Positions 2,231-26,223 of a stretch of 32,000 nucleotides of DNA are shown piece by piece. This DNA comes from Candidatus Saccharimonadota bacterium (lineage in GTDB: Bacteria; Patescibacteriota; Saccharimonadia; Saccharimonadales; Saccharimonadaceae). Position numbers and translations under genes: made by a program. The stretch spans positions 300,001-332,000 of the forward strand of contig JBAQRV010000001.1 of assembly GCA_049296095.1 (NCBI GenBank), read 5' to 3'. The stretch's first letter is position 1; every line of letters starts with the position of its first letter. The notes under the pieces were generated by a model, which saw only the letters and a list, made by a program, of their open reading frames with translations, was not told where the DNA came from and did not search any database.

Positions 2231-2296
2231 ATAGGGAACTCACCACAGAGTTACTACGAGAAATCGTCGTTCCCTCATAATTTAAGGAGTGCACTA

Positions 2297-2827: not shown

Positions 2828-2844
2828 CACTCCAATATGGGATG

Positions 2845-2890: not shown

Positions 2891-2917
2891 CATTTACAGG
2901 GGTCGCACACCACATCC

Positions 2918-2926
2918 TGTGGATAA
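2918..2926 (-). promoter_or_regulatory. perfect DnaA-box 9-mer (TTATCCACA on the - strand)
   Basis: The + strand reads TGTGGATAA at 2918-2926. The extended form on the - strand is TAGTTATCCACA. It is intergenic, about 70 bp upstream of the -35 at 2997. Confidence 0.5.
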
Positions 2927-2996
2927 CTAAAGCCCCACAACACTATCTATAGCGGATGTCTACTTTATGCTATAATGAATTAACAATATAAAATGT

Positions 2997-3025
2997 TTGA
3001 CATTAGTAACAGAATCTTGTATAAT
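2997..3025 (+). promoter_or_regulatory. sigma-70-type promoter, TTGACA-17 nt-TATAAT
   Basis: TTGACA at 2997-3002, 17-nt spacer, TATAAT at 3020-3025. It lies upstream of the 3060/3087 start. Confidence 0.7.
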
Positions 3026-3086
3026 GATAAGCATATTTGTATAGCAAGTAACTCCTGAGGTGGCCGGGAAAGAAAGACAGAGAATA

Positions 3087-4136
3087 ATGAGCGACTCAAG
3101 CGAAACAAAGCAGCCAATCGATCTTAAAGCAGGTGTCACAGACATCCTGTCTCTCATCGACCAAGAACGCGAACGCGAGATTATTACGCGTCGATTCGGT
3201 CTCTATGACCGCCGTGAAACCCTTGAACAAATCGGTGAGCTTCTTGGCATCACTCGCGAACGTGTTCGTCAGCTCGAAAAGGCGATCCTAATCCGCCTGA
3301 AAATAGCTGCCGAAGATGGCAAGACTGAAGTTGTCTCTAACCTTGAAAAAGTCTTTGTCCGCACCCTGAGCGAGATGGGACGCGTCGCTCGTATCCAAGA
3401 TTTGGCTGACATCCTTTATGGCAAGCCAACCAACGCCCAAGAGCGTGCCCACGTTGCTTTCATTGCCGCTCTCGCTCCTGGTCTGACAGTTATCGACGAA
3501 AATGACAACTATTACCTCGGTGTTGGTATTGCTGAATATGGTGATGAAAAGAAGATCCGCGCTCGTATCGACGAGATCGTCAAAACGATCAAAGAGAACG
3601 GCGAACCAATGACTCTCGACCAACTCCATGACAAGCTCAGCTACGAGCACCCAAGTCACGTCAGTGCGCTTGCTAGCCTCAGCAAACAACTTGCTCACCT
3701 GAAAGATTCATGGGGGCTCACTAAATGGCCAACCGTCAACCCAAAGAACATCCGCGACAAGATCTACGTTATCCTCGCCGAGAACAAGAAACCATTACAC
3801 TTCTCAGATATCGCTAAAGCTATCAAAGACAGCTCATTCAAGCGTAAAGACGTCACTACCCAGGCGATTCACAACGAACTTATTAAAGACAAGCGCTTCG
3901 TCCTCATTGGCCGCGGTATCTACGCCCTCGACAACTGGGGTTACAGCAAGGGAACCGTCTCTGATATTATCGCAAAAGTCTTAAAAGACGCTAAAGAACC
4001 GCTGCACCGCGACGAAATCGTCAAACGTGTTCTCAAGAGCCGCCAGGTAAAGGAAACGACCATCTTGCTCAACCTCCAGAGCAAGCCTCAGTTCAAGCGC
4101 GTTGCCAAAGCGACGTACACGCTCGAACAAGTCTAA
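3087..4136 (+). CDS. sigma-70 region-4-like HTH protein with two C-terminal HARE-HTH-like winged-helix modules (not a complete sigma factor)
   Basis: ETLEQIGELLGITRERVRQLEKAILIRLK matches the sigma-70 region 4.2 HTH, and no region 2/3 motifs are seen. The C-terminal segments KIYVILAENKKPLHFSDIAKAI...RFVLIGRGIYALDNWGY and VSDIIAKVLKDAKEPLHRDEIVKRV...ATYTL resemble the RpoE-delta/HARE-HTH fold. The start is ambiguous: ATG 3087 or GTG 3060. Confidence 0.7.
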   Translation: MSDSSETKQPIDLKAGVTDILSLIDQEREREIITRRFGLYDRRETLEQIGELLGITRERVRQLEKAILIRLKIAAEDGKTEVVSNLEKVFVRTLSEMGRVARIQDLADILYGKPTNAQERAHVAFIAALAPGLTVIDENDNYYLGVGIAEYGDEKKIRARIDEIVKTIKENGEPMTLDQLHDKLSYEHPSHVSALASLSKQLAHLKDSWGLTKWPTVNPKNIRDKIYVILAENKKPLHFSDIAKAIKDSSFKRKDVTTQAIHNELIKDKRFVLIGRGIYALDNWGYSKGTVSDIIAKVLKDAKEPLHRDEIVKRVLKSRQVKETTILLNLQSKPQFKRVAKATYTLEQV

Positions 4137-4153
4137 TCTCACCAGGAGCCAAT

Positions 4154-4840
4154 ATGCCCATACTCACTGAAACCTACCCAGACTACCGTGAGATCAATAC
4201 GCCTTGGGACCCCCAGCCAATTGCATGGCGTTCTGAAGAAAATGACAGCGATTCTACGATAAGCGTTCACCGTAATGACCTCGAACGTATCGATAGTAGC
4301 TCTTCACTTGATGCTCAGGTGAAGAATCCTGCACTTACACACCTCGTTCGCGAGGTGCTTGTTGCGACCCGTCGAGGCGTTATTGGGTTAGAAATGGACC
4401 CAGACGATGTTCAAAGTGACCTCACACTGGTTGATGACCAGTTTAGACAACTAGAAGAGTTGGCTGGCTTTCGAGTTGCTCCAACTGAATGGCACGTCTT
4501 TAAGGATAGACGAGGCCTTACGCGCACACTTGCACGTGTCGCGATTATTGATGGCAACAATAGGCCATTACCTGACGTCAGAAGTTTTGAGGATCTTGCG
4601 CGAATACCAAATCTTTCACCCGAAGACTATGAACTTGCATTCAACTACCTCACAGGGGTCGATAGTTACTTTAACGGTGTTCGAGGAAACCCACTAGGTG
4701 ACATCGACCATCCACGCCAGTACAAGTTCGGCGCACCACGATATTCAGGTAGTGAAGATGCGATATACCTTGTCGACATCGAACCAGACCTTGAGCCAGA
4801 TATCCCATACACTGATTTATATTTTAATGATAAGGCCTGA
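4154..4840 (+). CDS. hypothetical protein (228 aa), acidic, no recognisable family
   Basis: ATG preceded by AGGAG (5-nt spacing), 17 nt after the upstream stop, so it is likely co-transcribed. Confidence 0.6.
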   Translation: MPILTETYPDYREINTPWDPQPIAWRSEENDSDSTISVHRNDLERIDSSSSLDAQVKNPALTHLVREVLVATRRGVIGLEMDPDDVQSDLTLVDDQFRQLEELAGFRVAPTEWHVFKDRRGLTRTLARVAIIDGNNRPLPDVRSFEDLARIPNLSPEDYELAFNYLTGVDSYFNGVRGNPLGDIDHPRQYKFGAPRYSGSEDAIYLVDIEPDLEPDIPYTDLYFNDKA

Positions 4841-4890
4841 GACGAAGATTGCTAATCTACCTCTGAAATGAGAGAATATACATAGACATC

Positions 4891-7506
4891 ATGAGTATCA
4901 TAGGCGACGTTATTAACTTCTTATTACAATGGTATGTTTGGCTGCCTGTTGTTTTGTTGCTCGGATTTCTCACTTGGCGCAATTACCGCAAGGTAGAAGC
5001 CGTCACTGACGTTGAAAGCAATCTCCTCATCCTCGAGATCCCAAAGACCAACGACAAGCAAGAACTGGCCGCCGAACAGCTCTTTGCCAGCCTCCACGGT
5101 ATCCTCCGCGATCGTCATGAGCTAAAGGCCAATGCTGGCATTCAAGAACATCTCAGCTTCGAAATCGCCTCAGTTAATGGCCAAATCCGCTTCTACGCCT
5201 GGGTACCAAAGACTCTCCGCAGCTTCGTCGAGAGCCAAATCTATTCCCAATATCCAACTGTCCAAATCTACGAAGCCGAAGAGGACTACGTCGCTCACGA
5301 ACGCGACCATAGCGTCGTTTACACCTCTGAAATCGTCATGACCGACAATGAAGTCCTGCCGATCAAGACTTTCCAAAACTTCGAAGTTGACCCGCTGGCC
5401 GGTATTACCGGGACGTTGGCCAAACTCGAAACTAGTGGTGAAGAGGTCTGGGTGCAGATACTCGTTAAACCTATCGCTGACGATTGGCACAAAAACTCAG
5501 AACGCTGGATCTCAGGCGTCAAAGGCGGCAAATCAAGCGCCGCCAAGGGTGGTTTTGGTTTTCTCGGTGGCATTCTCGAAGCTCTCTGGAAACCACCTGA
5601 AGAGTCAGCCAAAGAGGCTGCGAAGCCTAAGGAACTGTCCGATCGCGACAAAACTCGTATCGCTGAAGCTGAAAAGAAGGCTACCAAGCTTGGCTACCAA
5701 GTAAAAATCCGCCTGGCCTATCTAGGGGAGAGTAGTACCAGCGCCCGCCAGCGCATGCAGGCAATTGTTGGTACCTTCAAGCAATATAACAGCACAAACT
5801 TAAATGGCTTTAAAGTCGCCAGCGCTTCTTTCAAAAAAGAAGATCTGGCCAAATACCGCCAGCGCACTTTTGGGCGCGGTGCTTTCATTTTAAATATCGA
5901 GGAGCTGGCCTCAGTCTTCCACTTGCCGCACACCAACGTCGAAACGCCGAATATCGTTTGGGCGAGCTCAAAAACAGCCGAACCACCAGCCAAACTACCG
6001 ATCATTACTGGCAACCAGGCTATCGACGAGAACATTAGTGCTTTCGGCCTAACGAACTTCCGTGGTATCAACCACCAATTCGGCATGCTCCGCTCTGACC
6101 GCTCTCGTCACGTCTACATCATTGGACAGACCGGTGCTGGTAAATCAGGTACCCTGGAGCTCTTTGCGCTCAGCGACATCTTCCACGGCCAAGGCTATGC
6201 CATTATTGACCCGCATGGGGACTTTGCTGTTGATAACATGCGCTACATCCCTGGTAGTCGTATGCAAGAGGTCGTCTACTTCAACCCAGCCGACACCGCC
6301 TATCCACTGGGCTTCAACCCACTTGAGGTGTTCGATCCAAGCCAAAAAACCAACGTCAGCTCCGAGGTTATTGGCGTGCTAAAGCGTATGTTCGGCGAAA
6401 GCTGGGGGCCACGTCTCGAATACATCCTCCGATACACCATTCTAGCCCTGCTTGACCGTCCAAGCACCACCATGCTCGACATTACCCGCATGCTGACCGA
6501 CAAAAAATTCCGCAAAGAAACACTTGATTACTGTACCGATACCGTCGTGCTGCAGTTCTGGAACGTCGAGTTTGCCAGCTGGAACGAGAAGTTCCAATCT
6601 GAAGCTATCGCCCCAGTCCTCAACAAGGTCGGTGCCTTTACCGCCAACCCAGTTATCCGTAACATCATTGGCCAACCAAAATCAACCTTCAATATCCGCC
6701 AGATCATGGACGAGGGTCGTATCCTCATCGTCAACCTCTCTAAAGGTCTGATCGGTGAAGACAATGCTGCCATCCTTGGTGCTTTCATGGTCACCAAGAT
6801 CCAACTGGCCGCTATGAGCCGCTCAGACATTCCAAACATTGCCGATCGTCGTCCGTTCTACCTCTACGTCGACGAATTCCAGAACTTCGCGACAGATTCA
6901 TTTGCAACCATCCTGTCCGAGGCTCGTAAATACGGTCTCAACCTGACCGTGGCTAACCAGTACATCTCACAGATGACCGATACTGTTCGTGACGCTGTTT
7001 TTGGTAACGTCGGTACTATGATTTCATTCCGTGTCTCTGCCGACGACGCACCGATCCTATCAAAGCAATTCGAGCCGCAATTCGAACCAAACGACCTCCT
7101 GCAGATGCACAACCGAAACTTCGTGATCAACATGGTCATCAACGGTGAGAAGGCCCCAGCCTTCAGTGCTCGCACGCTCGAGCTCCCTCCAGAACAGATC
7201 GATAACACCGCCCTCATCATCGAGAACACCCGCCGTCTCTACAGCCGAAATAGATCAGAAATAGAACAAGAAATCAGTGAAGCAATCAAGGTTCCGCAAA
7301 ATCTCCAGCCAAAAGCTCAGCAGCAACCACAGTCCCAAGCGCAAGCCAAACAGTGGCCAATCGAAGCAGGGGCGAAAGCAGTAGAGCAGGTGATTCCAGC
7401 ACCATTCGGCTCAGCAGAGCAGGGGAGTGTAGATCCCGACGCACCAGTAAAGAAGAAGCGCAAGCGGACGCGGAAGCGAAAGCCAGCAGCGTTGCAAGGT
7501 GAGTAA
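4891..7506 (+). CDS. membrane-anchored VirD4/TraD/TraG-like (type IV coupling protein-like) P-loop ATPase
   Basis: N-terminal TM segment (WYVWLPVVLLLGFLTW), Walker A (IIGQTGAGKSGT), Walker B (FYLYVDEFQNF), and ARKYGLNLTVANQYISQM typical of the T4CP/TraG-D_C region. About 370 aa of uncharacterised N-terminal domain. Disordered Q/P-rich C-terminus ending in KKKRKRTRKRK. Confidence 0.75.
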   Translation: MSIIGDVINFLLQWYVWLPVVLLLGFLTWRNYRKVEAVTDVESNLLILEIPKTNDKQELAAEQLFASLHGILRDRHELKANAGIQEHLSFEIASVNGQIRFYAWVPKTLRSFVESQIYSQYPTVQIYEAEEDYVAHERDHSVVYTSEIVMTDNEVLPIKTFQNFEVDPLAGITGTLAKLETSGEEVWVQILVKPIADDWHKNSERWISGVKGGKSSAAKGGFGFLGGILEALWKPPEESAKEAAKPKELSDRDKTRIAEAEKKATKLGYQVKIRLAYLGESSTSARQRMQAIVGTFKQYNSTNLNGFKVASASFKKEDLAKYRQRTFGRGAFILNIEELASVFHLPHTNVETPNIVWASSKTAEPPAKLPIITGNQAIDENISAFGLTNFRGINHQFGMLRSDRSRHVYIIGQTGAGKSGTLELFALSDIFHGQGYAIIDPHGDFAVDNMRYIPGSRMQEVVYFNPADTAYPLGFNPLEVFDPSQKTNVSSEVIGVLKRMFGESWGPRLEYILRYTILALLDRPSTTMLDITRMLTDKKFRKETLDYCTDTVVLQFWNVEFASWNEKFQSEAIAPVLNKVGAFTANPVIRNIIGQPKSTFNIRQIMDEGRILIVNLSKGLIGEDNAAILGAFMVTKIQLAAMSRSDIPNIADRRPFYLYVDEFQNFATDSFATILSEARKYGLNLTVANQYISQMTDTVRDAVFGNVGTMISFRVSADDAPILSKQFEPQFEPNDLLQMHNRNFVINMVINGEKAPAFSARTLELPPEQIDNTALIIENTRRLYSRNRSEIEQEISEAIKVPQNLQPKAQQQPQSQAQAKQWPIEAGAKAVEQVIPAPFGSAEQGSVDPDAPVKKKRKRTRKRKPAALQGE

Positions 7507-7507
7507 T

Positions 7508-8155
7508 ATGAATATTAATTATTTTGAATCAAAATATTGGGATACTGCTGCGGAGAAGGGGCTTGATAAGGAAGCTGTCAGGCAAGTGATCGACACCGCA
7601 ACTAATGAAGCAGCTTCACATCTTCCAGCTCTTTCCCCTTACCTAAATATTAGTGTTATCCCTGATGCAGATGAAACAATCCCCGAAACAGGTGAAGGTG
7701 GATATACATGGAGTGATGAGCGTGTAGCTATTTATTTTGATCCCGATGTACCGTATGGAACAGAGTCACTCAAAAACCATCTACGCTCAACGGTCTTTCA
7801 TGAACTCAATCATGCAGCTCGTGCTATACATATTCCTTATACCCGGCAACCTATTGAGGCACTAGTGGCCGAGGGTCTCGCTACAAATTTTGAACGATTA
7901 TATACAAAATCAAATCCACTATGGGGGCAATACGAGGATGACAAAACCATGCAAACATGGCTGAAAGAAGTTCTTGCACTCGAAGAAGGCGTTCGTCACA
8001 CCGACTATTTGTATGATCATCCCGATGGACGCAAATGGATTATATACAAAACAGGAACGTGGTTAGTCGACCGTGTACTAAAAGAGTCAAACCACAGCAT
8101 ACAGGACCTAACAATCATGCCAGCGCAGTCATTAGTTAACCTGATAAACGACTAG
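7508..8155 (+). CDS. DUF2268-like predicted Zn-dependent peptidase (HExxH)
   Basis: FHELNHAAR (HExxH) plus a downstream VAEGLATNFE glutamate, a gluzincin-like arrangement as in DUF2268. ATG 7508 sits right after the upstream stop (7504-7506), and the listed GTG 7499 would overlap it. Hand counts give about 33-48% GC per 60 nt, against about 50% in the neighbours. Confidence 0.6.
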   Translation: MNINYFESKYWDTAAEKGLDKEAVRQVIDTATNEAASHLPALSPYLNISVIPDADETIPETGEGGYTWSDERVAIYFDPDVPYGTESLKNHLRSTVFHELNHAARAIHIPYTRQPIEALVAEGLATNFERLYTKSNPLWGQYEDDKTMQTWLKEVLALEEGVRHTDYLYDHPDGRKWIIYKTGTWLVDRVLKESNHSIQDLTIMPAQSLVNLIND

Positions 8156-8175
8156 TTATTTTGAAAATTGAACAC

Positions 8176-8193
8176 GAACAAATTTAGAACATT
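8176..8193 (+). repeat. left copy of an 18-nt imperfect direct repeat (GAACAAATTTAGAACATT)
   Basis: 16 of 18 nt identical to 8723-8740 (GAACAAAAATAGAACATT). The two copies bracket the AT-rich non-coding gap. Confidence 0.35.
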
Positions 8194-8585
8194 AGACATA
8201 TAGGTTTATATAAACATTAAACACACAAGTCACGCACCGTACCAAAAAGACCATGATAGACCCAGGCAGGTAAGTGCATACAAACAAAACACAAAATAGC
8301 AGGACAAACCAGCGCGGAGAAAGAGCATGAGTGATCACAAACAGAACATAGACTTAACGTCGCCCAATATTTCTTTTACGACACATTCCATATACACAAT
8401 AGATGAGTATGTATACCTTCACTATACCCCTAGTAGAGGAGTGGTTTCGACATAGTACTGGTTATTCATACTTTTATGTACATACGAGTCATACTTTTAT
8501 ATGTTGCTTGGCACTCTCATTGCTAAGCCCTTTATATACATTAACCACGTTGTTGTATTTAATGTCGCATTTGTTATGCGCCTAG

Positions 8586-8594
8586 TTATCCACA
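8586..8594 (+). promoter_or_regulatory. perfect DnaA-box 9-mer TTATCCACA
   Basis: TAGTTATCCACA at 8583-8594, inside the AT-rich gap. It is 5 nt downstream of the palindrome CGCAT-TTGTT-ATGCG (8566-8580). Confidence 0.5.
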
Positions 8595-8722
8595 CCCGAC
8601 CAGTCATATTTGCTTTTTCCGTGAAAAGATTTTCTTCCCCCTATTCTCCTCTCCTACCCCATTGTTTGACGTATATGTATTTGTATATTTTTATATAGTT
8701 TTTTTTGGTACATAATTGTATA

Positions 8723-8740
8723 GAACAAAAATAGAACATT
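8723..8740 (+). repeat. right copy of the 18-nt imperfect direct repeat
   Basis: See 8176-8193. Confidence 0.35.
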
Positions 8741-8784
8741 GTTTGTAAGAAAAAGAGAGGAGAGAGTACTGTGCTTTTCCTTAT

Positions 8785-9696
8785 CTATTGGTAGACGGCG
8801 CGACCACCAATGCGAACATCAATATAGCTTGGCGACTCGCCACGGCTTTGCAGATACCGTAAGGCTCTGGTCATATCCTCGACCTGCTCCCCTGCTCCCC
8901 TGTCGATTGATAATTTTATCAACGATCCTACATCCTTCAGTCGGATCTCGAGCAGACGCGTCGTCCCGCTCGGCAAGATCGCCTCCACTACTTCGTAGCC
9001 GCTGTCTTTAGACAGCCCCACTACCCTACCTACAAAACTCAAAAAACGCGCGCTAGCCACCGTACTTCCCTGCTCTGGGCTAATGCCGCTCTCATCAATA
9101 ATCTGAACGTTTGGGGGTTGAAAATAATTCTTCTCAAAGACGACTCCTTGGTCATCAACGTAGTACTGGCGGCTATTGATTTGCCACCCGGCCAAAGGCT
9201 GGCGAAAAGTCATTGCGAAACGCGTCTCAACAATGTTGTGGGCACCAGTTTGTTGAACCCGAGCAACCTCAGGAGCGATAGCTGACACATAGTCGCTCAG
9301 CTCTTGTTCGTTAAGCAAGAATCGCAGGCGTGCAGCTGGATGAATGCCAAGATAGTCATTAATAATTTTTTCATACTTTTCACCATCAATTGAACTATTA
9401 AGGCTCGTTGTTGAGCTGGTAATAAGTACTTTGGCCGTCATTTGTGTTAAAAGCAGTGCGAGCACGCCAATAGCAATCAGGACAATCAACAAAATCCCAC
9501 CAACCTTGCGTCGCTGACGAGTTAAATGATGAACTTTGGAACGCGGCGAGGCGGCCTCTGCCAAAGTTTCACGGCGAACACCACTCATCGTCTGATTACG
9601 ACGAAATTGCTGCGGAACATACTCCTCAGGGCGTGGCTGACGGTCAGCCAGTCGCCGAGCAGGAACGGTCGGTTTGCGCGAACCGAATAACTTCAC
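8785..9696 (-). CDS. ftsQ: cell division protein FtsQ/DivIB-like
   Basis: Basic N-terminal tail, a single TM (GGILLIVLIAIGVLALLL), then a POTRA-like ectodomain. It occupies the last position of the dcw cluster, and its start overlaps the murG stop by 4 nt. Confidence 0.7.
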   Translation of the reverse strand: MKLFGSRKPTVPARRLADRQPRPEEYVPQQFRRNQTMSGVRRETLAEAASPRSKVHHLTRQRRKVGGILLIVLIAIGVLALLLTQMTAKVLITSSTTSLNSSIDGEKYEKIINDYLGIHPAARLRFLLNEQELSDYVSAIAPEVARVQQTGAHNIVETRFAMTFRQPLAGWQINSRQYYVDDQGVVFEKNYFQPPNVQIIDESGISPEQGSTVASARFLSFVGRVVGLSKDSGYEVVEAILPSGTTRLLEIRLKDVGSLIKLSIDRGAGEQVEDMTRALRYLQSRGESPSYIDVRIGGRAVYQ

Positions 9697-17414: not shown

Positions 17415-18437
17415 CTACTCACGGTCTCTTTGATAGATGGCGAGAATCTCTTTGATGACCGCGTCAGCATCATGACGGATCAAGGACCGCTTTACAGAAA
17501 AATGACTATTCGACGGCTTATGGTCGGCGATCGCTCCGAGAAATGCGCCTCCAACTGCTTTGTAGCCAACAGCGCGCGCCTGCTTAGCATCGTACCTTGT
17601 CAGAGAGTCGCCCTCTGCCCTATACTTCGAGGCTACGGCCCGTTCCGGCTTGGCGCTGTTATAGAGTACGTAGTCCAAGAAAGCTCCTCCCGCAAACCGT
17701 TCAATTTCAGCGGCATGATCATGAACCGTAAAGCCATCGGTCTGGCCTTGCTTACTAACAAGATTTGAGACATAGAATTTTAGGGCGTGAGATCGTCGAA
17801 GAGCCTCTCCTATACCATCGATTACTAGTAGTGGCCCTAGGGAGGTATATAAGTCTCCAGGAGCAACAATAATGATATCGGCTTGTTCGATTGCCGTAAT
17901 AGCCGTTTGGTTTACGTGTGCGGTCGGTACCAGAGATATTTCGGCACGACGCGGGTCACTTTTGAAATACTCCGCATCAATCACCCGCTCACCATGCAAC
18001 ACAACACTCTTGTGAGGCCACTCCATCTTGAGACGAACGTTATCAAGCGTGGCAGGGATCACAACCCCATTCACCCGCAGAATCTCTGATGCGGTATCAA
18101 CCGCCGCGTTAAAATCACCCTCGATTTTTTCTAGCGTCGTAAGAAGTAAGTTACCAAATGAATGGCCGTGAAATGTCCCCTCCTCAAAACGATAACTAAA
18201 CAAATCACGGACTTTTGGAGAGTCACTGAGAGCTACGAGACACTGCCTTACATCACCTGACGGTAGCGTCCCAAATTCATCACGGAGCACACCAGTACTT
18301 CCTCCGTCATCAGCCATACTGACAATAGCAGCAATTTGATTGGTATAATGCTTTAACCTCGAGAGTATAGTAAAGCTTCCGGTGCCCCCGCCTATGACTG
18401 CGACTCGTAGTGACTGCTTGGCAAACGGATCTTTCAC
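17415..18437 (-). CDS. yvcK: YvcK/CofD-family protein (gluconeogenesis factor-like, UPF0052)
   Basis: VAVIGGGTGSFTILSRLK ... MADDGGSTGVLRDEFGTLPSGDVRQCLVALS is the characteristic family signature. Confidence 0.85.
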   Translation of the reverse strand: MKDPFAKQSLRVAVIGGGTGSFTILSRLKHYTNQIAAIVSMADDGGSTGVLRDEFGTLPSGDVRQCLVALSDSPKVRDLFSYRFEEGTFHGHSFGNLLLTTLEKIEGDFNAAVDTASEILRVNGVVIPATLDNVRLKMEWPHKSVVLHGERVIDAEYFKSDPRRAEISLVPTAHVNQTAITAIEQADIIIVAPGDLYTSLGPLLVIDGIGEALRRSHALKFYVSNLVSKQGQTDGFTVHDHAAEIERFAGGAFLDYVLYNSAKPERAVASKYRAEGDSLTRYDAKQARAVGYKAVGGAFLGAIADHKPSNSHFSVKRSLIRHDADAVIKEILAIYQRDRE

Positions 18438-19699
18438 GATCTGCCTCTCAGCCTTTTAATCACCTTCCCAAATGCTATCGCACTCGGACGAAGTGTCCTC
18501 TTGCCTGTTTTGTAATCAACAGCAATCAACCCAAATCGTGGCCACTTGCCGTAGGCCCACTCAAAATTGTCCATCAAACTCCAGTGCATATAGCCAATCA
18601 ACTTTACTCCCCTGTTGAGTGCACTTTGCATTGCAACAATCGTTTCCTTCAACCACCATTGACGATACGCATCCTGGTCATCAGCCAGACCGTTCTCGGT
18701 GATCATAATTGGTAACTTATACTTCGCCCACCATCGTTCGAGCACAAACTCAATGTCGGCCGGTGTCATCGTCCAGTTTAGATCGCTATGGGGTTGATTC
18801 TCTGGGTTATGCATGCGATACCCAAACACTCGCTCTGACTGATAGTAGTTCAGGCCCATGAAATCAGAGTGTTTCACAAATTTCTTGAGGACATAGTCAT
18901 CCTGGAAGTACTGCAAAATTCGTGCACTGATATTACTCAGGTGCGCGGTATCTCCAGGATAAAAGAATACTGAGTTCTTACTGATCCCCACCCTCGCGCG
19001 ACGATTGAGTGTATGGATGATCTTACTCGCTCGGCGAAATGCCAAGGCCTGATTGTTAATCACCCGCCATAGTTTAAAGTTTGACGACTCTGCCGGCGGC
19101 CATTCTTGTACCTTATAGCCCTCGTGTGCATAAATTTCTGGTTCGTTCATAACAATCACGAAACGAATCTGACTGCCGAGCTCGCTCATAATCTTTTCAG
19201 CATATCTGACAAAGTATTTCACATTGCCTCGATGGACAAACCCACCCTTATCAGTAAACCAGGTCGGCAGACTAAAATGCAGCAACGTCACGACTGGCTC
19301 AATATCACGACGACGTAACTCGGCAACATATTCCTTGTAATGGCTAATAGCCTCGCTGTTCCACGAGCCTTCTTTTGGTTCAATACGCGACCACTCAATA
19401 CTAAACCGATAAGCATTCATGTTCATCTTTTGGAGAAGATCGAAATCCTCTTTATAACGGTGGTAGTGATCGGCCAGTGTATCAGAGACGTAGTTCGAGG
19501 GACTCCTGGCTTCATCTTTAACGCGTTCCCAGCTAGGATAGTCGTGGTAATGATACTCAGCCTGGGCAGCCTTTGCCTTGGCATTCTCGAGTTCCCACAC
19601 CGTCCATTGGTTGTGGTTACCGCCCTCAACTTGATGAGCAGCCGTCGCGGCACCCCACAGGAAATGTTTAGAAAAACCACTCTTTTTACTATCTGTCAT
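18434..19699 (-). CDS. glycoside hydrolase family 1 beta-glucosidase
   Basis: FLWGAATAAHQVEGG N-terminal signature, acid/base NEP (VMNEPEIY) and nucleophile ITENG. A 4-nt overlap with the downstream yvcK start. Confidence 0.9.
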   Translation of the reverse strand: MTDSKKSGFSKHFLWGAATAAHQVEGGNHNQWTVWELENAKAKAAQAEYHYHDYPSWERVKDEARSPSNYVSDTLADHYHRYKEDFDLLQKMNMNAYRFSIEWSRIEPKEGSWNSEAISHYKEYVAELRRRDIEPVVTLLHFSLPTWFTDKGGFVHRGNVKYFVRYAEKIMSELGSQIRFVIVMNEPEIYAHEGYKVQEWPPAESSNFKLWRVINNQALAFRRASKIIHTLNRRARVGISKNSVFFYPGDTAHLSNISARILQYFQDDYVLKKFVKHSDFMGLNYYQSERVFGYRMHNPENQPHSDLNWTMTPADIEFVLERWWAKYKLPIMITENGLADDQDAYRQWWLKETIVAMQSALNRGVKLIGYMHWSLMDNFEWAYGKWPRFGLIAVDYKTGKRTLRPSAIAFGKVIKRLRGRS

Positions 19700-19703
19700 A
19701 TAC

Positions 19704-21221
19704 CTATTCTACTACGTCCTCGCCAAAGTGTTTTTGGAGACGCATCCGTATCGAGCCTTCGTGACGACCCAACAACTTGCTCAAACTTTTAATCGAACTG
19801 CCGTTTAGGAATTTCTCTTTCAGCTGAGCGTCCTGAGCAGCTTCCCAGGGACGATAGGCATTTGGATATTCCTCACGCATCTTGGCGATCTTGTCGGACC
19901 AGCCGCTGGCTTTCGGCGCGTCCTTGACTGGCTCGCTTGCTCTCTTGGCTGCCTTTTTTTCTAACGCGGCAAAGCGCTGAGCATCGCGAGCAGCTCGACT
20001 CCGCAAAATCTCATCAATCGTTTGCGCATCTTCACTCACTTTCAAAGCCATCTGATTTATCCCCGTTAAATACAGGTTGTTCAAATTTTTTACTCGGCTG
20101 AGCGCCACATAACCCATCCCCTCAACAAAGGCTTTTCGCAGGTCAATACGAGCCGCATCAAGCGTCATGCCTTGGGACTTGTGAACGGTAATCGCCCAGG
20201 CCAAACGGAGTGGAATCTGGCTAATACTGGCACGTTTTTTGTCGCCATCGCGTAGTTCCCAGGTATCGGGGACCATTGAGACAACCTTGCCATTCTTAAA
20301 CTCAACAATTGGATACTCGGTGTGCGGCTCAAAATCTATCACTGTCCCCAGGCTCCCATTCACATACTTACGTTCGGCGCTATTCTTTACCGACATCACC
20401 AGGGCGCCTTTTTTTAGTTTCAAGGCAGCTGGCGCTAACACCGATCGCTGAAGCGACTCGACGTATCCCTCCGACCCAGTCGTCGTCTGCGAATAGGTAA
20501 TCTCATCCCCCTCGATCTCGGCTAATTTGGCAGCATTCATGCTATCAACATCAACATTCACCGTGTGGAGCTCTGTGAGTATCTCGAACTCATCAGGATA
20601 TACTTCAGAGCGCGTCAGTAAAGTCTCGGCATGATGACGACGCACGTCCCCTGCGCGAATGGCATTGAGTATTTCAAGCAACGTCTCATCGTCCTGGCGG
20701 TGTTGTTCCTGCAAATAGCAGATCACTGGATCGAGTTCCTGCCAGACCCGAGAATTGACAACAAAACCGCCAGCCCGTGAATCACCCCTATTAATAGGTG
20801 GTAGCTGGAAGAAATCACCACTCATAATCAGCTGAATGCCACCAAAAGGCTCGTCGACTTTTCGAACCAGCCGACAGACCTCATCAACCATGTCCAGACG
20901 AAAATCGTGCAACATACTAATCTCATCAATAATCAGGACATCGGTTTTTTCGATAATCTCACGGCGGCCCTTGGCGACATGTTCAGCAAAGCCGTTCGGG
21001 AGCGAATCCTGGACCCCAATCCCCGCCCAACTATGAATCGTCGAACCTCCGAGGTGGGTAGCGGCCAGTCCTGTCGTCGCCGTTACAGAAATGTGCTTGC
21101 CTTCATGTTTGGCAAGCTTAATAAATTGATTCAATACAAAGGTCTTGCCGGCGCCCGCTGGACCGGTCAAAAGCACACTTTCTCCCGAGAGCATTATCTC
21201 GAGTGCTAACCCCTGATTCAT
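19704..21221 (-). CDS. Pif1/RecD-like SF1B DNA helicase with a C-terminal HTH-like extension
   Basis: Motif I LLTGPAGAGKTF, Ia VTATTGLAATHLGGSTIHSWAGIG, II VLIIDEISML, III GGIQLIMSGDFFQLPPI and V ITVHKSQGMTLD. About 100 aa of C-terminal extension. A TATAAT lies 7 nt upstream of the ATG. Confidence 0.85.
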   Translation of the reverse strand: MNQGLALEIMLSGESVLLTGPAGAGKTFVLNQFIKLAKHEGKHISVTATTGLAATHLGGSTIHSWAGIGVQDSLPNGFAEHVAKGRREIIEKTDVLIIDEISMLHDFRLDMVDEVCRLVRKVDEPFGGIQLIMSGDFFQLPPINRGDSRAGGFVVNSRVWQELDPVICYLQEQHRQDDETLLEILNAIRAGDVRRHHAETLLTRSEVYPDEFEILTELHTVNVDVDSMNAAKLAEIEGDEITYSQTTTGSEGYVESLQRSVLAPAALKLKKGALVMSVKNSAERKYVNGSLGTVIDFEPHTEYPIVEFKNGKVVSMVPDTWELRDGDKKRASISQIPLRLAWAITVHKSQGMTLDAARIDLRKAFVEGMGYVALSRVKNLNNLYLTGINQMALKVSEDAQTIDEILRSRAARDAQRFAALEKKAAKRASEPVKDAPKASGWSDKIAKMREEYPNAYRPWEAAQDAQLKEKFLNGSSIKSLSKLLGRHEGSIRMRLQKHFGEDVVE

Positions 21222-21272
21222 TCTATCTATTATAGCGGATGAATCTTAGCTAAATGTTGTGGAATCGAGGTC

Positions 21273-22268
21273 TTATCCCCGCGGCGGCTCGCCCTCAGGA
21301 TCGTCGAGCAACTTCTTCGCCTTTACCTCGTACCGCTTCCCTGTAATCTGGCTGGTAATGTAATCTTCATTTATTAAGTTCACGAACATATCGAGGTCAT
21401 TGCCATCGATAATAATGATCGAGCCGTCGTCATCGCTCATCAGTTCGAGTTCCATATCATCGGCATATTCCAGCGCCTGGGTTTGAGAAACGGCTCCAAC
21501 TTCCAGTTTCTGCAATTTATTGACGATTTTCTTGCGTTCTCGAACGAGTGATTGCAAGTCTAAACCATCAGGGAAACTCAACTTATAATGCTTTTCAATC
21601 TCAGAGACCTTCTGATCAGCCAGTAATTGCTTTTTATATTCAAAGTTAAACAAGCGTTCGAACTTACTTTGATTAAAGATAAAAATATCGTCATCAGCAA
21701 TCAACACTTGATTATCAATCGGCACTTTCCAGCCAAAGTCAGACTTAAAGGCTTCGAACTTGCCACTCTTAAACTCCCAGGCGGTCGCACCAGCCAGCAC
21801 CCCGCCTTGATTCACCTGCTTGACAACGTAGAACGGCTTTGAACCATCCTTGCGACTAAATCGGGCAATGATGCCCTTAATGCGCTTAAAGTCGTGCTCC
21901 TCATGCGCGAACTCGACGATATCAGCCCGCTCATGTTCAATCAGATTTATGAGTGTCTGGGCATGATTCACTTTCTCTAGCTCAATCCGTAGCAGAACGT
22001 TCTCTTCCTTCTCGCTCATCTCGTATTCGCGAACCGTCAACCCAGTTCCCGCACCAAGTGTGACGGTATTCATGAGGTCATAAAGGAAAATCGGCTTCAA
22101 TTGAGCATCAAGCTCATTACCAACAGTGGTCGTATAGGGGGTATAGTTTCGATTAAATAAGAAAAACTCAATGTTGAGTTCGCCTTTGACCGCATCGGTA
22201 CTATTGGCCCATTGAAAAATATCAGTTCGCTCGCGAGTCTCTTCAGTCTTTGGTGTTTGATCGTCCAT
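21273..22268 (-). CDS. DUF4868-like protein (KwaB family of the Kiwa anti-phage system), orphan
   Basis: Size and segment pattern match my recollection of KwaB/DUF4868: a central IKGII...FYVVKQV block, ...VLIADDDIFIFNQSKFERLFNFEYK, and a C-terminal LINEDYITSQITGKRYEV. This comes from memory of the family, not from a search. ATG 22268 is preferred, and the listed TTG 22289 is the alternative. Confidence 0.55.
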   Translation of the reverse strand: MDDQTPKTEETRERTDIFQWANSTDAVKGELNIEFFLFNRNYTPYTTTVGNELDAQLKPIFLYDLMNTVTLGAGTGLTVREYEMSEKEENVLLRIELEKVNHAQTLINLIEHERADIVEFAHEEHDFKRIKGIIARFSRKDGSKPFYVVKQVNQGGVLAGATAWEFKSGKFEAFKSDFGWKVPIDNQVLIADDDIFIFNQSKFERLFNFEYKKQLLADQKVSEIEKHYKLSFPDGLDLQSLVRERKKIVNKLQKLEVGAVSQTQALEYADDMELELMSDDDGSIIIIDGNDLDMFVNLINEDYITSQITGKRYEVKAKKLLDDPEGEPPRG

Positions 22269-22297
22269 GTCTGTCTTTCGTTTAAGCAACAGAGCCT

Positions 22298-22326
22298 ATT
22301 GTATGACCCTGTCCAGACTATGGCAA
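22298..22326 (-). promoter_or_regulatory. sigma-70-type promoter TTGCCA-17 nt-TACAAT for the DUF4868-like gene
   Basis: On the - strand, TTGCCA (22321-22326), 17-nt spacer, TACAAT (22298-22303). It sits in the 52-bp gap after the rnhA stop. Confidence 0.55.
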
Positions 22327-22341
22327 TGATAAAAAATACAA

Positions 22342-22782
22342 CTATACTGCGTCAGGATCAACCCGACCATCGAGCCGCTTGGTGCGCGCAAAATTTGCCC
22401 ATTCATCCGCCATCTCATTCCCAGCGTCGCCTTCGTGGCCACGGACCCAGTTCAAGATCGCATTTGAATTTTGATACAACTCATAAACTTCTTGGACAAT
22501 GTCGAGGTTTTTGATCTCGCCACCCTTTTTGCGCCATCCCTTAGCCGCCCAGCCTGGTGCCCATTTGGTAATGACGTTGATCCAAAACTCACTGTCCGTA
22601 TAAATTTCACACTCTTCATCGCCCGCGTCTTTCATTGCAGCAATCAAAGCCATTCCTTCCATACGAATATTGGTTGAGCTCAGTTCGTGCCCAGCGATCC
22701 ATGGCTGCATGTCACGAATCACCACAAAACCGCCAGGACCAGGATTGGGGCTACAGCTCCCATCGGTGTAATAAATAATCAT
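22342..22782 (-). CDS. rnhA: ribonuclease HI
   Basis: DEDD catalytic pattern: IYYTDGSC, NIRMEGMALI, EIYTDSEF, GNEMADEWA. Typical length of about 146 aa. Confidence 0.9.
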   Translation of the reverse strand: MIIYYTDGSCSPNPGPGGFVVIRDMQPWIAGHELSSTNIRMEGMALIAAMKDAGDEECEIYTDSEFWINVITKWAPGWAAKGWRKKGGEIKNLDIVQEVYELYQNSNAILNWVRGHEGDAGNEMADEWANFARTKRLDGRVDPDAV

Positions 22783-22787
22783 TCCTA

Positions 22788-23090
22788 CTATTCTACTACT
22801 TCAATGCCGTTCCAAAAAGCGACATAGTTCGAGAAATCTTGTTTCACTCTTTCAATTGAGCCATCTTTCGGTTCGGGATAGTACCAAGCACCAAAAAGAT
22901 TGCGGTGGCCATCGACAACAACGTCGTAGTAGTTCGCCACACCTCTCCATGGACAGGTCGTCTCATGATCACTATCTTCAAAAAACTGCCAATTCAGTCT
23001 CTTTGGTGGAAAATACCAGTTACCTTCGATACGAATTAACTCCGAAACGGGCGCTTCCGCAATCGTCTCGCCTTGCCAGACCGCTCTCAT
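22788..23090 (-). CDS. DUF427 domain protein
   Basis: AVWQGETIAE...IEGNWYFP...TTCPWRGVANYYDV...AWYYPEP...VAFW matches the DUF427 signature. Confidence 0.75.
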   Translation of the reverse strand: MRAVWQGETIAEAPVSELIRIEGNWYFPPKRLNWQFFEDSDHETTCPWRGVANYYDVVVDGHRNLFGAWYYPEPKDGSIERVKQDFSNYVAFWNGIEVVE

Positions 23091-23512
23091 TACGCTGGCA
23101 TCACTCCGATAATCAGCGCCATGATTTCAATCGTCACCAACTCGTGCGTCACATTGAGTAGCGTCAATTTTTTACGTCGGCCTTCAAATGAGTCGTGCAT
23201 GTGAATACGAGCGGCCGTGAACCCAGCCCACAGAATCAACCCGACCCAGAGTGAGCTTTGCAAGAACGTACCACCAAAATAATCAGCAATAATAAAGGTA
23301 AAGATAGCAATGACGGTGGCGGTCAATGCCGAGGAGAGGAATGCACCTCCGTAAAGAAGTGCTGCTTTTTTTGGCCCAAAGTTTGGGTCGGTTTTCACCT
23401 TCGCAAGTTTGATCCAGACTTTACCGAACAGCGGCCCATACCACAGTGAACCAACAACCATTGTTGAAATTGCTGCTAGTAAAATTGCAATCCAGTTAAG
23501 TTCGACACTCAT
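23090..23512 (-). CDS. DUF1761-like integral membrane protein (4 TM)
   Basis: NWIAILLAAISTMVVGSLWYGPLFGKVW N-terminal signature, with four hydrophobic segments. A 1-nt overlap with the DUF427 start. Confidence 0.65.
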   Translation of the reverse strand: MSVELNWIAILLAAISTMVVGSLWYGPLFGKVWIKLAKVKTDPNFGPKKAALLYGGAFLSSALTATVIAIFTFIIADYFGGTFLQSSLWVGLILWAGFTAARIHMHDSFEGRRKKLTLLNVTHELVTIEIMALIIGVMPA

Positions 23513-23570
23513 ATGAATCTCCTGATTATGCGACTAGTATGCACTCTCATGAGGTAATTGTCTAGTGGTG

Positions 23571-24896
23571 CTATTTAGCGACTCGAAACCCGACGGTGGA
23601 GTACGCACTACTTGGCGTATCACTCAAAACAAGCGTCAATACACCTGTGTAGTTTGCATTACCCCAATCGCCGCCACGAAGGTAGGTACGCGTGTTCGTG
23701 TTACTGTAGTTACTATAAAGCTGACCTATACCCTGCGTGGACGAATAGCTAGCAACCGTTCCAGATATAGCACTCGGTCGGCTGTTCACAGGGAGACCAT
23801 TCATAAGTAGCGATCCGTTATTCCACTCTTTCCAAGCAAATGCCGACTCACCAGAAAGCCCTGGTTGCTGACCACTAGCAATGGTGGCATTTGTCCATTC
23901 ATATACATTACCAGCTAGGTCCCAAATCACCTCCCCATTCGTGAGTGTTAGTGTGCGGCGCTGATTACTGCCAGTCGTTTGACCAGTACCGCTATAGCCA
24001 TCGTTATCGTCAGTTGAAGCGGCTAACGAGTTGGCCGGAACGTTGTCATTGTGTCCTGAGTAGATATAGCCGCTCCCCACACTGCCCCCAGACCAGTTAG
24101 ACGCGACCGACAACACATTGGCGGCAATCGTCATCCACTCCGCCTCAGTGATAAGGTGACAGCCCGAACAGGCTCCGGTCGCCGTCGCAATCGCACTCGT
24201 CTGCGAGATGCTCACCCACGGCGCCCCTGCCGCCTCACTAACGGTGAAGCCGCTTGAATTCTTGGCCTCGTATTTCATCACACAAAAGTCGTCCGTTCCA
24301 AAGGTCGTGTTACCAGGCACGACAATATAGCCAGTCGGACACGACACGGCCGCAATCGCTCCGTCGGCACCCGTCCAGCTCAACCATTGACCATCCACCA
24401 TTCCAGCAATATCACCGAACGATTGGTAGGTCGGGTCAATGCTCGCACAGGTTTCATCCCAGTTTGCGGCAACGTCCGTCCACTCGACAGTACCCGTGTA
24501 TTCGCTAATGCCCGATTCACCCTTGGCGACAAATCGCTTGAGAGAGCGCGACATCGCGATAATTGCATACTCGGTCGCGCTAGGGTTCAAACATATGTAC
24601 ATATTTGCCATCGTGTTGACATCATACGATCCACCAGTAACTTTTACATCGAGATTGCCGAGTTCGAGGTACGAGTCAGGGTAAGTTCCGCCCGAATCCA
24701 ACGCAAACTGCTTGAAGGCATCGTCTATCTTTTGAAGATCGCTTTTTACCGCACTGTCATGGGCATTATTAACCACCGCACCGTAGCCCACGGCGACGAC
24801 CGCTGCAAGAATAGCGATAATAACAATAACGACAATCAACTCGACAATCGAAAAGCCCTGATGTGAGCGAGGTCGTTGTTGTATCCACCCTGTCAT
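23571..24896 (-). CDS. type IV pilin-like protein fused to an FGE-sulfatase / C-type-lectin-fold domain
   Basis: Class III signal: MTGWIQQRPRSHQG|FSIVELIVVIVIIAILAA with Glu at +5. The C-terminal half has FGE-sulfatase family motifs (LITEAEWMTIA, GNVYEWT, RGGDW, GFRVAK). I chose the start at ATG 24896 because the longer ORF to 24983 would overlap the glyQS 3' end. Confidence 0.8.
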   Translation of the reverse strand: MTGWIQQRPRSHQGFSIVELIVVIVIIAILAAVVAVGYGAVVNNAHDSAVKSDLQKIDDAFKQFALDSGGTYPDSYLELGNLDVKVTGGSYDVNTMANMYICLNPSATEYAIIAMSRSLKRFVAKGESGISEYTGTVEWTDVAANWDETCASIDPTYQSFGDIAGMVDGQWLSWTGADGAIAAVSCPTGYIVVPGNTTFGTDDFCVMKYEAKNSSGFTVSEAAGAPWVSISQTSAIATATGACSGCHLITEAEWMTIAANVLSVASNWSGGSVGSGYIYSGHNDNVPANSLAASTDDNDGYSGTGQTTGSNQRRTLTLTNGEVIWDLAGNVYEWTNATIASGQQPGLSGESAFAWKEWNNGSLLMNGLPVNSRPSAISGTVASYSSTQGIGQLYSNYSNTNTRTYLRGGDWGNANYTGVLTLVLSDTPSSAYSTVGFRVAK

Positions 24897-24933
24897 AGTG
24901 CCTTCATTATACCGCAAGCGGAATAAAAATGTA

Positions 24934-26223
24934 TTAAATCTCGTCGATGCTCTTACGAGTCTGCTCGGTCGTATCACGATCACGGACGGTCACCGTGCCG
25001 TCTTCGAGGGTATCAAAGTCGATAACCACGCAGTACGGCGTGCCGATCTCGTCCTGACGACGATAGCGCTTGCCGATATTACCGTTATCATCCCACATGA
25101 CGTTACCGTATTTCTTTTTCAAGAAATCATAAACCTCACGGGCCTTAGCTACAATCTCTGGTTTGTTGCGAACTAGTGGTGACACAGCATATTTCACCGG
25201 TGCGAGGTGCGCTGGTAGTTTCAAGACGATCCGCTTCTCGCCGTTCACTTCATCTTCGGTATAAGCAGTTGAGAGGACGGCCATCAGGGCGCGCTCGACA
25301 CCGAATGATGGCTCAATCACGTGCGGAACAAACTTTGTATCAGTTCCCTTGATGGTGTATTCCATATTCTTGCCACTCACCCGTTGGATGTTCTGCAAAT
25401 CAAAATCAGTACGATAGGCCAACCCGAGCAACTCTTCCTTACCGATAGGAAAATCAAACTCAAAGTCGATCGTTCGCTTACTATAGTGGGCGCGGTCGCT
25501 CTCAGGAACTTCTAGTTCATGGACGTTCTCATCAGGCAGACCGAGAGCCTGCGTCCACTTCCACACCTGCTGACGCCAATGCTCAAAAGCTTGTTCCCAC
25601 TTCGCTGGATCAACAAAGTATTCGATCTCCATCTGTTCAAACTCGCGGCTGCGGAAGATAAAGTCACGGGGGCTGATTTCATTACGAAATGCCTTGCCCT
25701 GCTGCGCAAGACCGAATGGTAAATCAGGATAAAAGGTATCGACAACATTTTTGTAGTTGGTAAAGATACCTTGGGCAGTTTCAGGGCGGAGGTAACTAAT
25801 GCTTGATTCGTCATCAACAGGACCGACATTGGTCTTGAACATCATGTTAAACTGGCGCGCTTCACCAAAAGTATGCTCCTTGCCGCAGGTTGGACATTTC
25901 GAAGTGTCGATCTTATCAGCACGGAATCGTCCATGACAATTTGAACATTCCACAAGTGGATCAGTAAACGTATCAACATGTCCACTCGCCTGCCACACCT
26001 TTTGATTCATCAAGATCGCCGCATCGACACCATGCATATCATCACGTTCTTCAACAAACATCTTCCACCATAGTTGCATGATATTACGTTTCAAAATCAC
26101 ACCCAGCGGACCATAGTCCCAAGTACCGCTCAGGCCGCCATAAACATCTGATCCAGGGTAAATAAATCCGCGGCGCTTCGCCAACGACACAATGTTTTCC
26201 ATTTTTTGATGTTGTTCGTTCAT
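24934..26223 (-). CDS. glyQS: glycine--tRNA ligase (dimeric class II type)
   Basis: IVSLAKRRGFIYPGSDVYGGLSGTWDYGPLGV N-terminus, class II motifs (FRNEISPR, GVERA), and a C-terminal anticodon-binding domain. Confidence 0.93.
   Translation of the reverse strand: MNEQHQKMENIVSLAKRRGFIYPGSDVYGGLSGTWDYGPLGVILKRNIMQLWWKMFVEERDDMHGVDAAILMNQKVWQASGHVDTFTDPLVECSNCHGRFRADKIDTSKCPTCGKEHTFGEARQFNMMFKTNVGPVDDESSISYLRPETAQGIFTNYKNVVDTFYPDLPFGLAQQGKAFRNEISPRDFIFRSREFEQMEIEYFVDPAKWEQAFEHWRQQVWKWTQALGLPDENVHELEVPESDRAHYSKRTIDFEFDFPIGKEELLGLAYRTDFDLQNIQRVSGKNMEYTIKGTDTKFVPHVIEPSFGVERALMAVLSTAYTEDEVNGEKRIVLKLPAHLAPVKYAVSPLVRNKPEIVAKAREVYDFLKKKYGNVMWDDNGNIGKRYRRQDEIGTPYCVVIDFDTLEDGTVTVRDRDTTEQTRKSIDEI

Follow-up and report, generated by a model that had tools for sequence, protein, structure and literature searches.

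The KwaB-like gene and its neighbours

The window analysed here is a 32,000-nucleotide stretch of a Candidatus Saccharimonadota genome (GenBank assembly GCA_049296095.1, contig JBAQRV010000001.1, positions 300,001 to 332,000 of the forward strand), and all coordinates given below are those of the window. Its central feature is a gene for a protein of the DUF4868 family, the family of KwaB, which together with the membrane protein KwaA forms the anti-phage system Kiwa. An earlier note on this DNA, made from the sequence alone, had described the gene as an orphan KwaB-like gene between RNase HI and a Pif1-like helicase with a C-terminal helix-turn-helix (HTH)-like tail, with a DUF1761 gene nearby, and had proposed a KwaA-independent variant of Kiwa or a new three-gene module. 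The KwaB-like gene and its two immediate neighbours are:

21273-22268, minus strand: KwaB-like (DUF4868) gene, 331 amino acids from its ATG, of a KwaA-less subfamily
22342-22782, minus strand: RNase HI gene (rnhA), upstream neighbour (PF00075, E 6.6e-32)
19704-21221, minus strand: PIF1-family helicase of superfamily 1B (SF1B), downstream neighbour (PF05970, E 5.7e-35; Pif1 2B domain PF21530, E 1e-5)

The identities of the flanking genes and of the DUF1761 gene were thus confirmed by Pfam. The helicase has about 100 additional C-terminal residues forming the HTH-like tail and scores far under the NCBIfam equivalog cutoffs for RecD2 and RecD; its orthologue in Southlakia epibionticum is assigned to KEGG K15255. 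An identical KwaB-like protein in the same gene order occurs in a metagenome-assembled genome of Candidatus Microsaccharimonas (GCA_049286885.1, contig JBAQET010000003.1).

Homology to KwaB and predicted fold

The product of 21273-22268 is a true homologue of KwaB/DUF4868, as the earlier note had supposed, and sequence families, structure profiles and fold comparison agree on this. It scored 35.9 bits (E 1e-8) with the Pfam family KwaB (PF16162), whose gathering score is 26.3, and matched eight KwaB models of PADLOC, the best of which (PDLC00233, E 6e-14) aligned over the full length, protein residues 35-329 corresponding to model positions 17-315 of 320. A search of the PDB with the protein as a single sequence gave nothing relevant and a family profile was needed; with it, the KwaB chains 9o0i and 9mrx were found over residues 43-318 (E 2e-11 to 9e-11). 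An AlphaFold2 monomer model (pLDDT 85.3, pTM 0.76) submitted to Foldseek returned only KwaB structures from the PDB (9mrx, 9mtn and 9nyu), at full length with E values of about 5e-13 and a probability of 1.0. The global TM-scores to these structures were only 0.43-0.51, probably because the two domains are placed differently relative to each other. The protein reached 53.9 bits with the NCBIfam KwaB equivalog NF041623, under its 200-bit cutoff; the KwaA-linked proteins P0287 and P0191 likewise stay below it (65-68 bits), and the cutoff does not separate the clades. Charge separates none of them either, the KwaB-like protein being acidic (isoelectric point (pI) 4.8), as are the members of all clades.

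A glycine-rich GAGTG motif is found at residues 72-76, within the stretch LGAGTGLxVR, which varies little or not at all among close and mid-range KwaA-less relatives (alignment A2) and conserved at 90% or more in a wider set (alignment A4). E. coli KwaB lacks this motif. In the Rossmann-like half it has a long helix on one side and a strand on the other, and it might represent a ligand-binding loop. Longer homologues were checked for informative domain fusions and showed only low-complexity N-terminal extensions or chimeric-looking gene calls.

Search for KwaA

No KwaA was found with Pfam (including PF28043) or PADLOC among the scanned neighbours, the two upstream genes and the DUF1761 gene included, and it was not among the best 25 of the 42 PADLOC families matched by the 35 open reading frames (ORFs) of the window. 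A KwaA hidden Markov model (HMM) was run against the six-frame translation of the window and 86 related loci (1.23 Mb) and gave nothing better than E 0.15; this HMM was built from two KwaA sequences, which makes it narrow and of limited sensitivity, and the search covered the 32-kb window and about 17 kb around each relative. Among the genes inserted beside the KwaB-like gene in the related loci (see below) none was KwaA-like, and no ORF cluster had more than two predicted transmembrane segments. In the positive control, KwaA (PF28043) was recovered directly upstream of kwaB, overlapping its start, in the three loci L087, L102 and L103. As the earlier note had stated, the KwaB-like gene is without a KwaA partner, as far as can be seen.

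Conservation in Saccharibacteria

Relatives of the KwaB-like protein numbered 2467 at E <=1e-3 in a 90%-clustered database; the best 120 of these are 72-100% identical to it, and those that have a name are labelled Saccharibacteria. Only 199 matching representatives were present in a 50%-clustered library of 1.84 billion proteins, so that the branch is narrow but densely populated. With one genome per species, at least 491 GTDB species genomes contain a relative. Gene order was compared in the best 80 of these genomes, whose proteins are 66-79% identical to the window protein; alignment A2 was used for this locus search, as the broad alignment A1 was too divergent. All 80 loci showed synteny of the Saccharibacteria type, most of them being labelled Saccharibacteria and a few labelled as other phyla, and the complete genomes CP011211.1 and CP075337.1 (TM7i) are among them.

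The kept order is recO-glyS-...-rnhA-KwaB-like-Pif1-(GH1)-(CofD)-mraZ-rsmH-ftsI. Where at least 5 kb of flank was available, the helicase lay downstream in 58 of 60 loci; for rnhA, with 7 kb or more of flank, the upstream place was occupied in 58 of 59. The order recO-glyS-rnhA-KwaB-like-Pif1 persists even in a clade (L099, L100) with only about 40% identity to the window protein. In this region of the window, all genes are transcribed from the minus strand, in the order glyS, pilin-like gene, DUF1761, DUF427, RNase HI, KwaB-like gene, helicase, GH1 and CofD/YvcK-like gene, the genes outside the central three being:

24934-26223, minus strand: glyS
23571-24983, minus strand: pilin-like protein with an FGE-sulfatase domain
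23090-23512, minus strand: DUF1761 gene (Pfam)
22788-23090, minus strand: DUF427 gene
18434-19699, minus strand: family 1 glycosyl hydrolase (GH1)
17415-18437, minus strand: CofD/YvcK-like protein, followed by mraZ, rsmH and ftsI

Median identities to the window proteins place the KwaB-like protein (71%) within the range of this block, in which Pif1 is the most conserved (79%), followed by glyS (77%), mraZ (76%), rnhA (75%), rsmH (71%), recO (70%), CofD (66%), GH1 (63%) and ftsI (61%). Its divergence tracks that of its neighbours, with Spearman rho values of 0.66 for Pif1, 0.73 for rsmH and 0.69 for recO. Hence, the gene is inherited vertically and is near-core at a fixed chromosomal position in Saccharibacteria. 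This constant position in a housekeeping block, conservation at housekeeping level and divergence in step with the neighbours speak against the suggestion that a KwaA-independent variant of Kiwa had been found.

The identity of glycyl-tRNA synthetase (GlyRS) to that of the window is bimodal, being about 48% in L025, L035, L045, L053, L060, L074 and L081 and 64-89% in most other loci, while the neighbours stay at 65-80%. This pattern suggests that some Saccharibacteria have had their GlyRS replaced by one of a different lineage. The left part of the window (62-8155, plus strand) carries the C-terminal part of topoisomerase I, a protein with sigma-70 region 4 and HARE-HTH, a VirD4/TraG-like type IV coupling protein (871 amino acids) and a DUF2268 protease-like gene; the G+C content falls to 0.40 at 7500-9000.

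Promoters, 5' leader and start codon

The earlier note had assigned separate promoters to the KwaB-like gene and the helicase. The elements concerned are:

22298-22326, minus strand: sigma-70-type promoter TTGCCA-17-TACAAT of the KwaB-like gene (10/12 positions)
22269-22297, minus strand: conserved 5' leader of the KwaB-like gene, located between its -10 box and ATG and containing GTTG...AAACGAAAG (purine box)
21229-21234, minus strand: TATAAT box of leaderless type, 7 nt before the ATG of the helicase, read in the sequence

Both assignments held up. TTGCCA-17-TACAAT is the best promoter-like match within 19500-23700, a region in which the number of promoter-like sites is no higher than chance. 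Comparison between loci gives the stronger evidence: a TA[CT]A[AG]T box stands about 32 nt before the ATG of the KwaB-like gene in 57 of 79 related loci, regardless of which gene lies upstream. The 5' leader is conserved at the nucleotide level over 80 loci with the consensus TACAATAaatnctaGTTGttannAAAnaAAAgatAnAAtATG, and the purine box lies at most 30 nt from the ATG in 68 of 79. The leader may hold a regulatory site. The window copy of the leader contains CTGT-N14-ACAG.

A product of 331-338 amino acids had been given earlier. The ATG at 22268 is preferred because the deposited protein is the 331-residue form and because the distance between TTG and ATG is not kept in frame in relatives; the TTG at 22289 and with it the 338-residue form were rejected.

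A -10-like box also precedes the helicase in 49 of 68 related loci, with a median distance of 7 nt between its end and the ATG. Since both the KwaB-like gene and the helicase have their own conserved -10 box, an obligatory operon is argued against. Across loci L003-L086, TATAAT-like boxes were found 7-11 nt before the start codon not only of the helicase (49/68) but also of GH1 (32/37) and glyS (39/57), which suggests that leaderless or near-leaderless mRNAs are common in this lineage. The KwaB-like gene differs in that its leader, with a purine box, is about 30 nt long.

Insertions, losses and dispensability

More than 500 bp separate rnhA from the KwaB-like gene in 45 of 73 loci, and the KwaB-like gene from the helicase in 39 of 69. 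The two junctions are hot spots of insertion, with inserts of 0.5-6 kb (L003-L086). Read from cluster representatives, with no family search, the inserted genes look like those for S-adenosylmethionine synthetase, a pyridoxamine-oxidase-like protein, YaaA, prephenate dehydratase, a CYTH protein, pilins and a DNA-alkylation-repair-like protein; additionally, there are several families of acidic proteins without assigned function, each recurring in 4-12 loci. Two loci, L069 and L071, have no helicase downstream. In L069 (9071-16534) the KwaB-like gene is followed by genes for a large serine recombinase, a Replic_Relax protein and an FtsK/HerA-like ATPase, which points to a mobile element inserted at the helicase junction.

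A metagenome search starting from the helicase gave 20 loci of Saccharibacteria type with a KwaB-like gene, located upstream of the helicase in 14 and downstream in 6. The swapped order, helicase then KwaB-like gene, was seen in L195, L198, L199 and L202-L204 as well as in S. epibionticum (SEML1_0264/0265), where the genes run rnhA - hypothetical - helicase - DUF4868 - GH1 - YvcK. In this swapped subclade the KwaB-like protein is closest to P0122, and both genes lie on the same strand between rnhA and GH1/CofD. Two close relatives without the KwaB-like gene, L189 and L218, have helicases 78-81% identical to that of the window. In L189 (3633-5671) rnhA abuts the helicase with a gap of 2 bp; in L218 (5450-7515) the helicase is split into two ORFs of 207 and 291 amino acids, by either a frameshift or an assembly error. 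Some 50 loci with helicases 39-50% identical have neither the KwaB-like gene nor the syntenic markers.

In transposon-insertion sequencing (Tn-seq) of S. epibionticum in co-culture, the DUF4868 gene SEML1_0265 was non-essential (48-58 insertions with stable read counts), as was the helicase SEML1_0264, while RNase HI showed a late growth defect (PMC10633639, Table S1). The KwaB-like gene is thus of high frequency, vertically inherited and dispensable. The RNase H/KwaB-like/helicase module envisaged by the earlier note was not supported, as each gene has its own -10 box, unrelated inserted genes often interrupt the junctions, and some relatives have the helicase but no KwaB-like gene.

Relatives linked to KwaA and relatives in phages

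The most distant relatives that could be placed in a genomic context carry KwaA. Among these, L087 is located among restriction-modification genes and L102 adjoins a methylase and an HNH nuclease. Intermediate relatives, 28-46% identical, reside on viral contigs, in a prophage and in phage-like elements (IMG/VR loci L091-L098, L104, L105 and L107; prophage or phage-like loci L088, L089 and L101). RecT is encoded within about 6 kb of the KwaB-like gene in 8 of the 12 distinct viral, prophage or phage-like loci, and KwaA was found in none of the 12.

L104 and L105 have the order Gp157 - RecT - YqaJ - KwaB-like, with RecT, YqaJ and the KwaB-like gene contiguous, followed in L104 by a DnaJ-domain protein and in L105 by a small ORF and an SF2 helicase. 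In L089 and L101 these three genes are nearly contiguous. The order in L089 is RecT - YqaJ - exonuclease-like - x - HTH - KwaB-like - Pif1 - HerA-like - 2'-5' RNA ligase, its Pif1-like helicase being 46% identical to that of the window; L101 shows the same order up to the KwaB-like gene and then a DNA methylase. A PD-(D/E)XK nuclease fused to an FtsK-like ATPase is present in L094 and L096, and in L094 this fusion follows the KwaB-like gene, while L098 has a DUF3799 (PD-(D/E)XK) nuclease and an AAA_24 protein in place of RecT/YqaJ.

With E. coli KwaB as root, a neighbour-joining tree places the KwaA-linked L087, L102 and L103 at the base, outside a single clade that holds all KwaA-less sequences, made up of two chromosomal subclades and several phage groups. 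The family is also matched by PHROGs phrog_11123, which has no assigned function, and by a 59%-identical fragment from a metagenomic siphovirus in BFVD. In tblastn searches of cultured-phage records, neither the window protein nor P0281 had a match, and nothing was found with the phage-type protein P0137 alone against viral contigs. One 35-kb contig filed as viral (L090/L106, IMGVR_UViG_3300008472_000016) carries at its end rnhA-KwaB-like-Pif1 with 65% identity; it is probably a fragment of a Saccharibacteria chromosome, perhaps with a provirus alongside.

DNA-contact and KwaA-contact residues

E. coli KwaB forms a dimer; its N-terminal half is Rossmann-like and its C-terminal half is DUF4868, through which it binds single-stranded (ss) and double-stranded (ds) DNA non-specifically (preprint 10.1101/2023.02.26.530102). 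KwaA holds KwaB at the membrane, KwaB stalls phage replication forks, and deletion of kwaA abolishes defence; membrane tethering has been proposed to prevent self-damage (10.1101/2023.02.26.530102). The residues involved were compared with those of the KwaA-less proteins, the identity of the window protein to E. coli KwaB being only about 14%.

The DNA-contact residues aligned were N134, R142, R167, D169, K187 and R233 of E. coli KwaB. R167 aligns with K181, a position occupied by K or R in 39 aligned KwaA-less sequences, and the invariant K202 and K251 adjoin the positions of K187 and R233. For the KwaA contacts, N42, the loop P100/N101/Q103 and Y157 were compared, R21 and R35 not being alignable. 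P100 is replaced by R or E, N101 by various residues and Y157 by F, and charged residues take the place of the loop around P100; these contact positions vary among KwaA-linked homologues too. As a whole, the comparison with E. coli KwaB is not decisive.

Proposed role and alternative explanations

The reading we favour, and which we hold to be about evenly poised between right and wrong, is that the KwaB-like protein is a KwaA-independent DNA-binding accessory of recombination or repair. By analogy with E. coli KwaB, it would probably be a dimer that binds ss and ds DNA without sequence specificity. In canonical Kiwa, KwaA tethers KwaB at the membrane, where incoming phage DNA is trapped; the KwaB-like protein would instead be cytoplasmic and assist recombination, repair or fork processing by binding DNA. 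What leads to this proposal is the lack of a membrane anchor together with the housekeeping-like conservation and the position of phage relatives beside RecT and exonucleases and before motor ATPases. In Saccharibacteria, the likely motor partner would be the adjacent Pif1-like helicase. Four points suggest such a coupling: the adjacency survives the order swap in S. epibionticum and six metagenome loci, the pair recurs in L089, the helicase is the most conserved member of the block, and in one locus (L218) both genes are damaged or lost. For RNase HI there is no support for a link beyond general synteny.

Several observations weigh against this reading. The separate -10 boxes and the frequent insertions between the KwaB-like gene and the helicase weaken the Pif1 link; the whole 20-kb block is syntenic, which makes adjacency alone weak evidence of coupling, and a KwaB-like gene was found near 0 of 80 Pif1-like helicases of viral contigs. 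DNA binding by the KwaA-less subfamily is carried over by analogy from the distant E. coli protein, and apart from R167 the other five DNA-contact positions vary, even among canonical KwaBs. The tree lacks support values, and its root is arbitrary. Finally, of about 24 evaluable loci reached by way of the helicase, 3-4 have no KwaB-like gene; dispensability and occasional loss rule out a core replication factor, and the dispensability would suit a role in defence just as well.

Whether the gene is conserved or patchy in relatives had been raised in the earlier note as a point on which a defence reading depends. In essence, the gene turned out to belong to a conserved syntenic block and to have no tie to variable regions; this leaves the defence reading unsupported and largely refutes it, with the qualification that the few loci lacking the gene make conservation less than complete. 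We therefore consider a lineage-wide DNA-handling protein more likely than a mobile defence system. A different form of defence is conceivable, in which the protein is a KwaA-independent immune effector fixed in the lineage and vertically inherited, binding incoming phage or plasmid DNA and blocking its replication, alone or with the Pif1-like helicase and RNase HI. Defence against phages and plasmids by DNA binding is the only characterised function of the family, and such an effector would agree with the non-essentiality of the orthologue and its helicase in co-culture (PMC10633639), with the loss of the gene in some close relatives, with the insertion hot spots at both junctions, one of them holding a serine-recombinase element, and with weak matches of the helicase to helicase components of PADLOC candidate systems. 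We nevertheless regard it as unlikely: Kiwa depends on KwaA for defence and, as proposed, for avoiding self-damage, the KwaA-contact loop appears to be replaced here (P100 to R or E), the inserted neighbours are metabolic or without assigned function with no recognised defence genes among them, and the phage copies sit inside RecT/YqaJ modules. Vertical inheritance at a fixed position with housekeeping-level identity in at least 491 species is likewise unlike known defence genes and Kiwa. Slightly less likely still, in our estimation, is a combination in which a cytoplasmic KwaB-like DNA clamp and the Pif1-like helicase form a fixed, KwaA-independent immune or DNA-surveillance module against foreign DNA in competent cells, with the phage copies countering or mimicking it.

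The competence of the host leads to another alternative, that the protein handles DNA imported by transformation or organises the nucleoid, binding or protecting incoming or chromosomal DNA with no specific link to recombination enzymes. According to a published abstract, Saccharibacteria are naturally competent; KwaB binds ss and ds DNA non-specifically and in Kiwa acts on entering DNA, the gene is non-essential in co-culture, and its own promoter is strong and, like its leader, conserved. No competence genes are linked to it in the neighbourhood, however, the protein is acidic overall, and the phage copies point to a function from which a replicating phage genome benefits too, which makes this explanation improbable. 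A conventional Kiwa system with its KwaA gene elsewhere in the genome is very improbable. Only 32 kb of the genome and about 17 kb around each relative were inspected, and kwaA and kwaB are sometimes transferred independently (Kiwa study); against this, no KwaA-like sequence was found in the window or in 1.23 Mb around the gene in 87 genomes, KwaA overlaps the kwaB start in all three canonical loci retrieved, and the KwaA-contact residues appear not to be kept.

Until now KwaB had been known in a single capacity, that of effector in a membrane-anchored defence complex. What is new is a KwaA-less branch of KwaB that is fixed in hundreds of Saccharibacteria species and recurs in phage RecT/exonuclease modules. 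Literature treating Kiwa and Saccharibacteria together contained no report of a KwaA-less subfamily, only incidental single KwaB matches in oral viral contigs. The distribution suggests that the KwaB fold has a general role in DNA transactions, from which Kiwa may have recruited it, or the reverse. 'KwaB-like' annotations and single-gene Kiwa matches in Patescibacteria and viral contigs should not be counted as defence systems. With an orthologue in the genetically tractable S. epibionticum, and the gene also present in the complete TM7i genome, the question is directly testable.

Comparison with known systems

The helicase of the window shares PF05970 and the Pif1 2B domain with SF1B helicases of the PIF1/RecD2 type and differs from them in its extra C-terminal HTH-like tail.

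In modules of RecT and an exonuclease, the third-gene place is often taken by a gene for single-stranded DNA-binding protein (SSB). SSB follows exonuclease and RecT in SPP1-type phages, and lambda Red has Gam. The KwaB-like gene of L104 and L105 stands at the same place, right after RecT and exonuclease, and may by analogy be compared with these third genes. The KwaB-like protein shows no sequence or fold relation to SSB or Gam, its Foldseek matches in the PDB being KwaB only.

The phage and prophage proteins belong to the same KwaA-less clade as the window protein and have the same length, and L089 resembles the window in that the KwaB-like gene is directly followed by a Pif1-like helicase. 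The phage copies differ in their setting, which is not the housekeeping block but early regions beside RecT, a YqaJ-type or PD-(D/E)XK exonuclease, Gp157 and SF2 or FtsK-like ATPases.

KwaB of E. coli Kiwa (9mrx, 9mtn, 9nyu and 9o0i; PF16162, NF041623) is of the same family and has the same two-domain architecture over its full length. The two proteins are similar in size (331 amino acids in the window, 315 in E. coli), both are acidic, and a basic residue is kept at the R167 position. In contrast to its E. coli counterpart, the window protein is without a KwaA partner and its KwaA-contact loop appears not to be conserved; the GAGTG motif, near-invariant in the KwaA-less clade, sets it apart further. 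The Kiwa study covered operons of KwaA and KwaB only and found a phylogeny shaped largely by horizontal transfer, with more than half of the loci in mobile elements. The two therefore differ in their inheritance as well: Kiwa is transferred on mobile elements, whereas the KwaB-like gene of Saccharibacteria is passed on vertically at a fixed position.

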